A program made the translations under genes and the position numbers. Below the pieces are notes generated by a model, which saw only the letters and a program-made list of their open reading frames with translations, did not search any database and had not been told where the DNA came from. Below are positions 19,436 through 19,651 of a stretch of DNA of 64,000 nucleotides, piece by piece. Positions within the stretch are counted from its first letter, which is position 1; every line of letters starts with the position of its first letter. This DNA is from Candidatus Promineifilaceae bacterium (GTDB lineage: Bacteria > Chloroflexota > Anaerolineae > Promineifilales > Promineifilaceae), in the NCBI GenBank assembly GCA_965223175.1, contig CBDCVS010000003.1, forward strand, positions 1,756,157 to 1,820,156, given 5' to 3'.

Positions 19436-19469
19436 CAACAAAAAACGGTGGCTATTGCATTCCACCGTC
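19436..19469 (-). terminator. leader (attenuator) terminator upstream of cysM
   Basis: The minus strand reads ACGGTGG-AATGCAATAG-CCACCGT-TTTTTG and lies about 45 nt upstream of the cysM ATG. Confidence 0.6.
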
Positions 19470-19541
19470 GCTAATTTGCGAGGGAAGCCGCCACCGTCCG
19501 TTCGTCATTTATTCTTAGGAATTAATCGAGACGAATGATAG

Positions 19542-19580
19542 CTATTTCCCTCGCCTCATACACATGCAGTTCAACATCAT
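19542..19580 (-). CDS. candidate 12-aa leader peptide MMLNCMCMRRGK
   Basis: ATG ATG TTG AAC TGC ATG TGT ATG AGG CGA GGG AAA TAG. GAGG lies 9 nt upstream. The last four codons form the 5' arm (GCGAGGGAA) of a 9-bp helix with TTCCCTCGC, which sits just before the terminator. Confidence 0.4.
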   Translation of the reverse strand: MMLNCMCMRRGK

Positions 19581-19623
19581 TAGAATAAACCTCAAAAAAT
19601 TGATAAAAAGTCCAATTGCGAAC

Positions 19624-19651
19624 AGTATAACATAGGCTCTTAGCATGTCAA
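19624..19651 (-). promoter_or_regulatory. sigma-70-type promoter for the cys operon leader
   Basis: The minus strand reads TTGACA - 16 nt - TATACT. It lies about 40 nt upstream of the leader ORF. Confidence 0.55.

Follow-up and report, generated by a model that had tools for sequence, protein, structure and literature searches.

The cysM-led cysteine operon in the window, a 64,000-nucleotide (nt) stretch of the genome of a Candidatus Promineifilaceae bacterium (Chloroflexota), is preceded by a leader which comparison with its relatives makes very likely to be a cysteine-specific, ribosome-mediated transcription attenuator sensing charged tRNA-Cys. We identified this leader as one of a family of 38 copies, the remaining 37 originating from related Chloroflexota. 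Comparison of the copies reveals a conserved short open reading frame (ORF), its frame and Cys codons, four co-varying RNA pairings, a U-tract and an association with cysteine synthase genes. The mechanism is put forward for the family as a whole, and our confidence in the switching quality of the window's own copy, which was judged from folding models, is lower.

In the proposed mechanism, transcription would start approximately 35 nt upstream of a leader ORF of 11-12 codons containing Cys-x-Cys five codons before the stop. When cysteine is plentiful the ribosome would reach the stop codon and cover segments 1 and 2 of the leader RNA, upon which segment 3 would pair with segment 4 to form a long terminator, and transcription would end 45 nt ahead of cysM. 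Under a shortage of Cys-tRNA the ribosome would stall with a Cys codon in its A site and cover no more than the beginning of segment 1. In that case segment 2 would pair with segment 3, as would segment 1 if the ribosome had stalled at the first Cys codon, leaving segment 4b partnerless and allowing RNA polymerase to read into cysM-JAB-cysO-moeZ. Ribosome stalling, the footprint used in our model and the act of termination are what we infer from the conserved features described below.

A leader peptide family upstream of cysteine synthase genes

Copies of the leader were collected from cysM loci of genomes, from metagenome loci, from close relatives obtained by protein search and from a search with a sequence profile, R1, which was sequence-only and served only to locate copies. 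When the regions upstream of cysM at 80 loci were searched with the leader by BLAST, matches came from Chloroflexota loci only, with the ORF tail as the best-conserved stretch. The matched regions share a common layout of a promoter, a short ORF ending C-x-C-[MLI]-x-R-G-x-stop, complementary segments and a U-tract. The leader was found in 18 of the 18 genome loci named Chloroflexota as well as in loci from metagenomes and close relatives; no retrieved cysM locus from Acidobacteriota or other phyla had it. Every copy lies 130-255 nt upstream of a cysteine synthase gene, at CysM identities down to about 58%. The closest CysM relatives all belong to Chloroflexota, and for the most part to Anaerolineae (Promineifilaceae, Ardenticatenaceae, Anaerolineales); a metagenome scan with CysM gave no relative above 65% identity, those at 77-90+% having come by protein search.

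The ORF is conserved as a reading frame. An in-frame ATG, open to the first Cys codon and situated 2-8 codons upstream of it, is present in 34 of the 38 copies compared with 0 and 1 for the other two frames, and an in-frame stop occurs 7-8 codons past the first Cys codon in all 38 (20 TAA, 15 TAG and 3 TGA). The sole change in ORF length, in L009 and L092, amounts to one whole codon. C-x-C is invariant, the first Cys codon being TGC in 37 copies and TGT in one and the second TGT in all 38, while nine different codons occur between them (AGG, AGA, ATG, ACA, ACG, ATC, TCG, TCC and TTG), encoding Arg, Met, Thr, Ile, Ser or Leu. The residue following C-x-C is Met, Leu, Ile or Arg, and the peptides are 10-15 amino acids in length with N-terminal residues and length varying freely. 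This pattern of conservation indicates that the leader ORF is translated across the family. The Cys codons are always one codon apart with a fixed synonymous choice (TGC, then TGT), for which the attenuation model gives no explanation.

An earlier note, made from the window alone, named a set of features, all of which do occur between 19651 and 19440 of the minus strand, upstream of cysM. The near-consensus promoter that it described matches 11 of 12 consensus positions, has an upstream TG and is the top promoter-like site within 18000-21000. The 12-codon ORF with its GAGG Shine-Dalgarno (SD) sequence is likewise there, the ORF being upheld by the family, and is preceded by a predicted 5′ untranslated region (5′ UTR) of about 35 nt containing the GAGG. 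The second ATG (19577) is probably the actual start of the leader ORF, since the closest relatives L171 and L161 have ATC at the position of the window's first ATG. The same note had suggested an alignment of relatives' cysM upstream regions as a check on its proposal that both Cys and Met charging were sensed. Alignment recovered the ORF, the Cys codons and compensatory changes in the helices, but not the Met codons. Sensing through Cys is retained, and Met codons as sensors are rejected because their positions vary (Met, Leu, Ile or Arg after C-x-C, and any residue between the Cys codons).

Further indications of the signal come from second copies of the leader, located with R1 upstream of cysK-cysE in three Anaerolineales genomes which also carry a cysM copy (L040, L172 and L173). 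Their leader peptides, MALYCSCLGRVS and MPSYCSCLWRDL, each end at a stop codon, and the copies possess their own terminators and compensating changes in the helix between segments 1 and 3b. As the cysK-cysE and cysM operons share only cysteine synthesis, the signal is most simply cysteine, and sequence comparison points to a small cysteine regulon under one leader type in these three genomes. A variant leader upstream of cysM in L113, MISTVACMAACMCCMERGR followed by a stop, contains four Cys codons.

Cys-rich mini-ORFs were also counted upstream of cysM more generally, with loci of Acidobacteriota and other phyla included, occurring on the forward strand in 44 of 148 loci and on the reverse strand in 12. 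An enrichment outside Chloroflexota was rejected, as approximately 30 of the 44 forward-strand positives are the Chloroflexota family itself. Two other loci display mini-ORFs of this kind: the Terriglobia locus L072, with MCLCCI, a stop and then, 74 nt before cysM, a terminator-like hairpin, and the Luteitalea locus L042, with a mini-ORF ending in ACRCCRCACRSPR and a stop upstream of cysM.

Alternative pairings and the terminator

The earlier note had read the leader as following the segment 1:2 / 2:3 / 3:4 logic of classical attenuators. We retain the four segments with a revised map, in which segment 1 lies in the ORF, segment 2 after the stop, segment 3 comprises 3a and 3b and segment 4 comprises 4a and 4b (Table 1). 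The 9-bp helix already noted between the ORF tail and a downstream arm (GCGAGGGAA, within 19557-19546, with TTCCCTCGC, 19486-19478) corresponds to 1:3b. Two pairings are additional to that note, a 1:2 hairpin (GAGGCGAG/TTCGTCTC) and a 2:3a helix (GCTATCATTCGTC/GACGAAC..GGTGGC). Duplex energies in the window are -12.8 kcal/mol for 1:2, -15.9 for 2:3a, -16.6 for 1:3b and -25.3 for 3:4. A further pairing considered, between segment 2 and the loop of the terminator (GCTAT/ATAGC), was dropped, being absent from L161.

The hairpin that had been taken as the terminator, ACGGTGG-N10-CCACCGT followed by T6 (19467-19440, -10.2 kcal/mol), is present but represents segment 4 folded on itself. The full terminator is the long 3:4 hairpin, at about -22 to -25 kcal/mol, and its end (19440) is 45 nt before the cysM ATG (19395). 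Our terminator scan did not return the local hairpin as its loop limit is 8 nt and the hairpin loop is 10 nt. The extra copy of ACGGTGGC previously regarded as a competitor for the 3′ arm is indeed found, at 19497-19490, but its role is a different one, this first copy being the conserved 5′ arm of the family terminator. Of 30 representative copies inspected, L011 alone lacks a U-tract after segment 4.

Covariation of the pairings was assessed by calculating duplex energies for partners within species and for partners swapped between species over 5000 permutations. Cognate partners paired more strongly than swapped ones in 1:2 (-15.8 vs -13.1 kcal/mol), 2:3a (-18.7 vs -15.3), 1:3b (-15.1 vs -12.4) and 3a:4 (-17.5 vs -13.8), and for each of these pairings all 5000 permutations fell short of the cognate value. 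No cognate preference was seen in this test for 2:4 and 1:4, which served as controls. RNAalifold recovered the 1:2 hairpin in the Anaerolineales group (11 bp, 3 compensatory pairs), the 1:3b helix in a Promineifilaceae-like group and the long-range 3a:4b closing helix in both subgroups; on an ungapped 46-nt block it gave no consensus pairs. Pair counts for 1:3b were taken from a gap-free construct, a MAFFT alignment of concatenated blocks having been excluded as out of register in segments 2 and 3b. In this construct 84% of cells are paired, compared with 34-51% when the partner is slid, 6 of 10 pairs have changed on both sides, and none of 500 shuffles reached the covariation score, which bears out the helix of the earlier note. 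Individual relatives display the same behaviour: L170 keeps 3b:4a through a compensatory CTACC/GGTAG (read by eye), and L161 keeps the local 4a:4b hairpin through the double change ACGGTGA/TCACCGT. Taken together, the comparisons indicate that all four alternative pairings (1:2, 2:3a, 1:3b and 3a:4) co-vary.

The influence of the ribosome was modelled with an assumed footprint in which RNA is covered through 13 nt from the first base of the A-site codon. We measured the pairing gain of the last 7 nt before the U-tract as a constrained free-energy difference at 32 loci, which are related and not independent; this replaced an equilibrium measure of whether the 3′ arm is paired, which separated the states poorly. 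Placing the ribosome at the stop codon gave a mean net stabilisation of the terminator 3′ arm of -8.4 kcal/mol, against -4.3 for the first Cys codon and -3.5 for the second, with the predicted direction in 28 of 32 and 30 of 32 loci, respectively. In this model a ribosome at the stop codon stabilises the terminator, and one at the Cys codons favours the antiterminator. Frame conservation, co-varying helices, a terminator that is ribosome-dependent in the model and the association with cysK-cysE all speak for the attenuation logic initially proposed for this cysteine operon.

Alternative explanations

A number of observations weigh against the attenuator interpretation. A 4-nt SD core is missing from over half of the leaders, the Cys codons number only two and are not adjacent, and the conserved tail [MLI]-x-R-G-x is inseparable from the constraint that acts on segment 1 as RNA. 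Owing to the shared phylogeny of the copies, the counts and p-values given here overstate their independence, and L011 is without a U-tract. The remaining points concern the window. Its local 7-bp hairpin needs no segment 3 and is compatible with the antiterminator, equilibrium folding leaves the terminator arm paired in every ribosome state (0.98), and the contrast between states is small (-10.1 kcal/mol at the stop vs -8.5 and -7.2 at the Cys codons). This weak predicted contrast between starved and replete states is due to the local segment-4 hairpin with its U6, which forms because segment 4a resembles 3a, a resemblance shared with L161 and L171 and more weakly with L163, L164, L168 and L170. 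With segments 1 and 2 masked, the minimum-energy structure of the window is the long 3:4 hairpin (-22.2 kcal/mol), and on these models the window's clade may toggle between a strong and a weak terminator.

Nucleotide conservation is high around TGC-NNN-TGT-N5-GCGRGG and CGGTGG and the second Cys codon is always TGT, hinting at a constraint at the RNA level, as might befit a ligand-, tRNA- or protein-binding RNA (a riboswitch or T-box-like element recognising cysteine, O-acetylserine or sulfide) in which the ORF is incidental. The GGTGGTA of segment 3a may bear a loose resemblance to the T-box core. However, a frame-specific ATG (34 copies vs 0 and 1), three kinds of stop codon and a whole-codon indel are unexpected of a non-coding RNA, and apart from the mutually exclusive attenuator helices no multi-helix aptamer is conserved. 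Rfam, T-box and S-adenosylmethionine (SAM) riboswitch families included, gave no match at gathering score in the whole window or on the leaders of 13 related loci, and at E<=10 only chance-level microRNA (miRNA) and small nucleolar RNA matches in 19300-19800 (501 nt); we regard a binding RNA as quite unlikely. A chance juxtaposition of an unrelated small ORF and an ordinary hairpin would fit the modest statistics of the window alone, where the 196-nt leader has a fold z-score of -2.0, 7 of 200 shuffles fold as well and the core pattern TGYNNNTGTNNNNNSCGRGR occurs once against 0.13 expected. It is conservation that places the element beyond chance: 38 copies from diverged genomes, always 130-255 nt upstream of the gene and with co-varying helices, refute this explanation and leave it a practically negligible probability. 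Very improbable as well is a constitutive partial terminator or insulator in which the C-x-C peptide is a small functional product, e.g. metal- or thiol-binding. The window's local 4a:4b hairpin does form in all modelled states and C-x-C...R-G is conserved at the peptide level, yet such a terminator makes little sense 45 nt before a biosynthetic operon with its own strong promoter, the peptide, 10-15 residues long, has no conservation at its N-terminus, its conserved tail falls on segment 1 of the co-varying helices, and the alternative pairings 1:2 and 2:3a would be left unexplained.

The output of a translated, cysteine-sensing upstream ORF (uORF) could also be Rho-dependent polarity, a change in mRNA stability or an effect on the translation of cysM, as with mycobacterial polycysteine leaders. 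Experimentally studied Cys leaders do act on translation (Canestrari et al. 2020), actinobacterial cys leaders lack terminators (PMC1262725), and the missing U-tract of L011 together with the weak terminator contrast predicted for the window would accord with such an output. Nevertheless nearly all copies have a GC-rich stem directly followed by 4-7 U, the stem co-varying with segment 3, while the cysM SD and start lie 45-100 nt past the terminator and outside the conserved pairings; we therefore rate an output other than termination as unlikely. A more speculative variant, which we consider a long shot, has the C-x-C motif, the fixed TGC...TGT and the [MLI]-x-R-G tail form a nascent arrest peptide stalling the ribosome according to thiol, redox or metal state, with the window's clade toggling between a strong (about -22 kcal/mol) and a weak (about -10 kcal/mol) terminator and not between on and off. 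If true, it would couple the oxidation-resistant CysO pathway to redox stress, beside a conserved extracytoplasmic function (ECF) sigma/anti-sigma pair. The interpretation that we favour remains transcription attenuation in response to charged tRNA-Cys: the family combines a conserved ORF, Cys codons, mutually exclusive helices and an intrinsic terminator as in a classical attenuator.

Genomic context and comparison with known systems

The first gene under the proposed control of the leader encodes a cysM-like cysteine synthase, homologues of which at 60-86% identity are annotated as cysteine synthase B. The remainder of the operon (15277-18395, minus strand; Table 1) has an identical gene order in L168, L170 and L171. 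A sulfur-carrier pathway of cysteine synthesis comprising CysO, CysM, Mec+ and MoeZ is known from Mycobacterium tuberculosis, and the window operon is this pathway. The ThiS/CysO-like carrier ends in ...AGGVQSILRK, that is Gly-Gly plus seven residues, which fits a precursor trimmed by the adjacent JAB protease. Divergent from the operon are an ECF sigma factor and a zinc-finger anti-sigma factor, an arrangement conserved in L168, L170 and L171 which may recall the redox-responsive sigma/anti-sigma control of the CysO pathway in mycobacteria.

Table 1 Features of the leader, its operon and the flanking genes (positions are those of the window, except for the cysK-cysE copies)
Feature	Position	Strand	Remarks
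-35 hexamer TTGACA	19651-19646	-	Leader promoter; promoter at the same distance conserved in relatives
-10 hexamer TATACT	19629-19624	-	16-nt spacer, TG upstream
Shine-Dalgarno GAGG	19593-19590	-	9 nt ahead of the first ATG of the ORF, 12 nt ahead of the second
Leader ORF ATGATGTTGAACTGCATGTGTATGAGGCGAGGGAAATAG	19580-19542	-	12 codons, encodes MMLNCMCMRRGK; TAG stop included
Regulatory codons TGC-ATG-TGT (Cys-x-Cys)	19560-19568	-	TGC in 37/38, TGT in 38/38 of the family
Segment 1, GAGGCGAGGGAA	19557-19546	-	Last ORF codons; partner segment 2 or 3b
Segment 2, GCTATCATTCGTCTC	19542-19528	-	Begins in the stop codon; partner segment 1 or 3a
Segment 3a, GACGAACGGACGGTGGC	19506-19490	-	Pairs with segment 2 (antiterminator) or 4b (terminator)
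Segment 3b, TTCCCTCGC	19486-19478	-	Pairs with segment 1 or 4a
Segment 4a, GCGACGGTGGAA	19471-19460	-	Pairs with 3b (long terminator) or 4b (local hairpin)
Segment 4b, GCCACCGT	19452-19445, overlapping U6 tract 19445-19440	-	Terminator 3′ arm and predicted termination point
cysM-like pyridoxal phosphate (PLP)-dependent cysteine synthase	18421-19395	-	First gene under proposed control; PF00291, E 6e-70
JAB protease	17949-18395	-	Operon
ThiS/CysO-like carrier	17402-17692	-	Operon
DUF4395	16874-17335	-	Operon
Thioredoxin-like protein	16479-16856	-	Operon
ThiF-rhodanese MoeZ-like protein	15277-16482	-	Operon
ECF sigma factor	19821-20405	+	Divergent from the cysteine operon
zf-HC2 (zinc-finger) anti-sigma factor	20451-21032	+	Divergent from the cysteine operon
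cysK-cysE leader copies	L040 500-645; L172 2706-2850; L173 near 2813		Located by R1 profile search

Certain further elements were observed around the leader in the window, which has a GC content of 47%. A box, TTTTTATCAA-N4-TTGA, is situated at 19609-19592 between the -10 hexamer and the SD, which it overlaps; close relatives share the box, and in L002 (TTTTTATCAAaaaaTTGATAAAAA) and L003 it forms a full palindrome. Over the whole family, inverted repeats here do not exceed shuffles (arms of 4.9 vs 4.4 nt), and on these figures a 5′-UTR hairpin or operator conserved across the family was rejected; a role for the box as an operator or 5′ hairpin in some lineages is possible. A perfect 15-nt inverted repeat (AGAAGTTCAACTTTT / AAAAGTTGAACTTCT; 19699-19713 and 19748-19762, arms 34 nt apart) sits between the leader promoter and the divergent ECF sigma gene and could be an operator or a structure in the 5′ region of the latter. 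It is kept in L171, L168 having a different inverted repeat at that place, and it accounts for the spurious miRNA matches in the Rfam scan of 19300-19800. A SAM riboswitch (RF00162, 73 bits) is present directly downstream of cysM in a Promineifilaceae genome (L004, 4098-4238), with no counterpart in the Rfam scan of the window.

The leader family is undescribed in Rfam and in the literature that we found, where searches on leader peptides, attenuation and terminators in Chloroflexi or Anaerolineae returned nothing relevant; the kind of device, trp-type, is known. It could be utilized as an RNA family for genome annotation, as a way into the sulfur regulation of Anaerolineae, a group abundant in wastewater and sediments, and as a compact Cys-responsive switch for synthetic biology. 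Of the systems operating on related genes, the Cys T-boxes and SAM-binding S-boxes of Firmicutes are likewise cis-acting 5′ leaders of sulfur amino-acid genes with an antiterminator/terminator switch, and T-boxes also read tRNA charging, as proposed here. Unlike the Chloroflexota leader they bind tRNA or SAM directly without translation, and the leader has no match to RF00230 or RF00162.

Leader-peptide attenuation is textbook knowledge for Trp, His, Leu, Thr, Phe and Ile/Val, and in the trp leader of E. coli the regulatory codons immediately precede segment 1, the stop codon falling between segments 1 and 2. The Chloroflexota leader resembles trpL, and those of his, leu, thr, pheA and ilv, in having a short translated ORF with codons for the end product. 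With these leaders it also shares four segments forming 1:2, a 2:3 antiterminator and a 3:4 terminator with U-tract, as well as the placement of sensor codons just 5′ of or within segment 1 and of the stop between segments 1 and 2. It differs in its amino acid, cysteine, in sensor codons split by one codon where those of trpL are tandem, in its phylum, in a segment 1 that also pairs with the 3′ half of segment 3, and in the absence of sequence homology (no Rfam leader match).

Leader peptides with Cys codons have been reported from other phyla. Mycobacterial polycysteine small ORFs (sORFs) are leaderless, contain consecutive Cys codons and unmask a downstream SD, with no intrinsic terminator (Canestrari et al. 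2020, 10.1101/834739); these authors regarded uORF-mediated attenuation for cysteine as previously undescribed. Actinobacterial cys leader peptides lack terminators (Seliverstov et al. 2005, PMC1262725), and a two-Cys leader precedes cysS in Deinococcus (PMC4007540). As in the mycobacterial and actinobacterial cases, an upstream small ORF would report cysteine supply to operons of cysteine metabolism, several operons per genome carrying the device. Unlike the mycobacterial sORFs, the Chloroflexota leader has a 5′ UTR of about 35 nt with an SD, C-x-C and not a run of Cys codons, and a terminator/antiterminator pair, its pairings ending in the terminator and not at the cysM SD. A further published counterpart, the uORFC-8-2 motif, precedes cysS in Rhodobacterales; it is predicted to be a ribosome-mediated attenuator with terminator stem and U-run (Brewer et al. 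2021, PMC8632094), and similarly has two conserved Cys codons. By its published description it is a two-stem element of Alphaproteobacteria with tandem Cys at positions 14-15 of a longer peptide, whereas all copies of the Chloroflexota family are upstream of cysM or cysK and encode 10-15-residue peptides with split Cys codons.

Cysteine has been the odd one out in leader-peptide attenuation, the mycobacterial case acting on translation and the only terminator-type Cys leader that we found in the literature being the prediction for cysS in Rhodobacterales (PMC8632094). The Chloroflexota leader, if confirmed, would be a classical terminator/antiterminator Cys attenuator of cysteine biosynthesis itself, acting on the CysK/CysE route as well as on the sulfur-carrier CysM/CysO route, in a phylum that has been little studied and is mostly uncultured.

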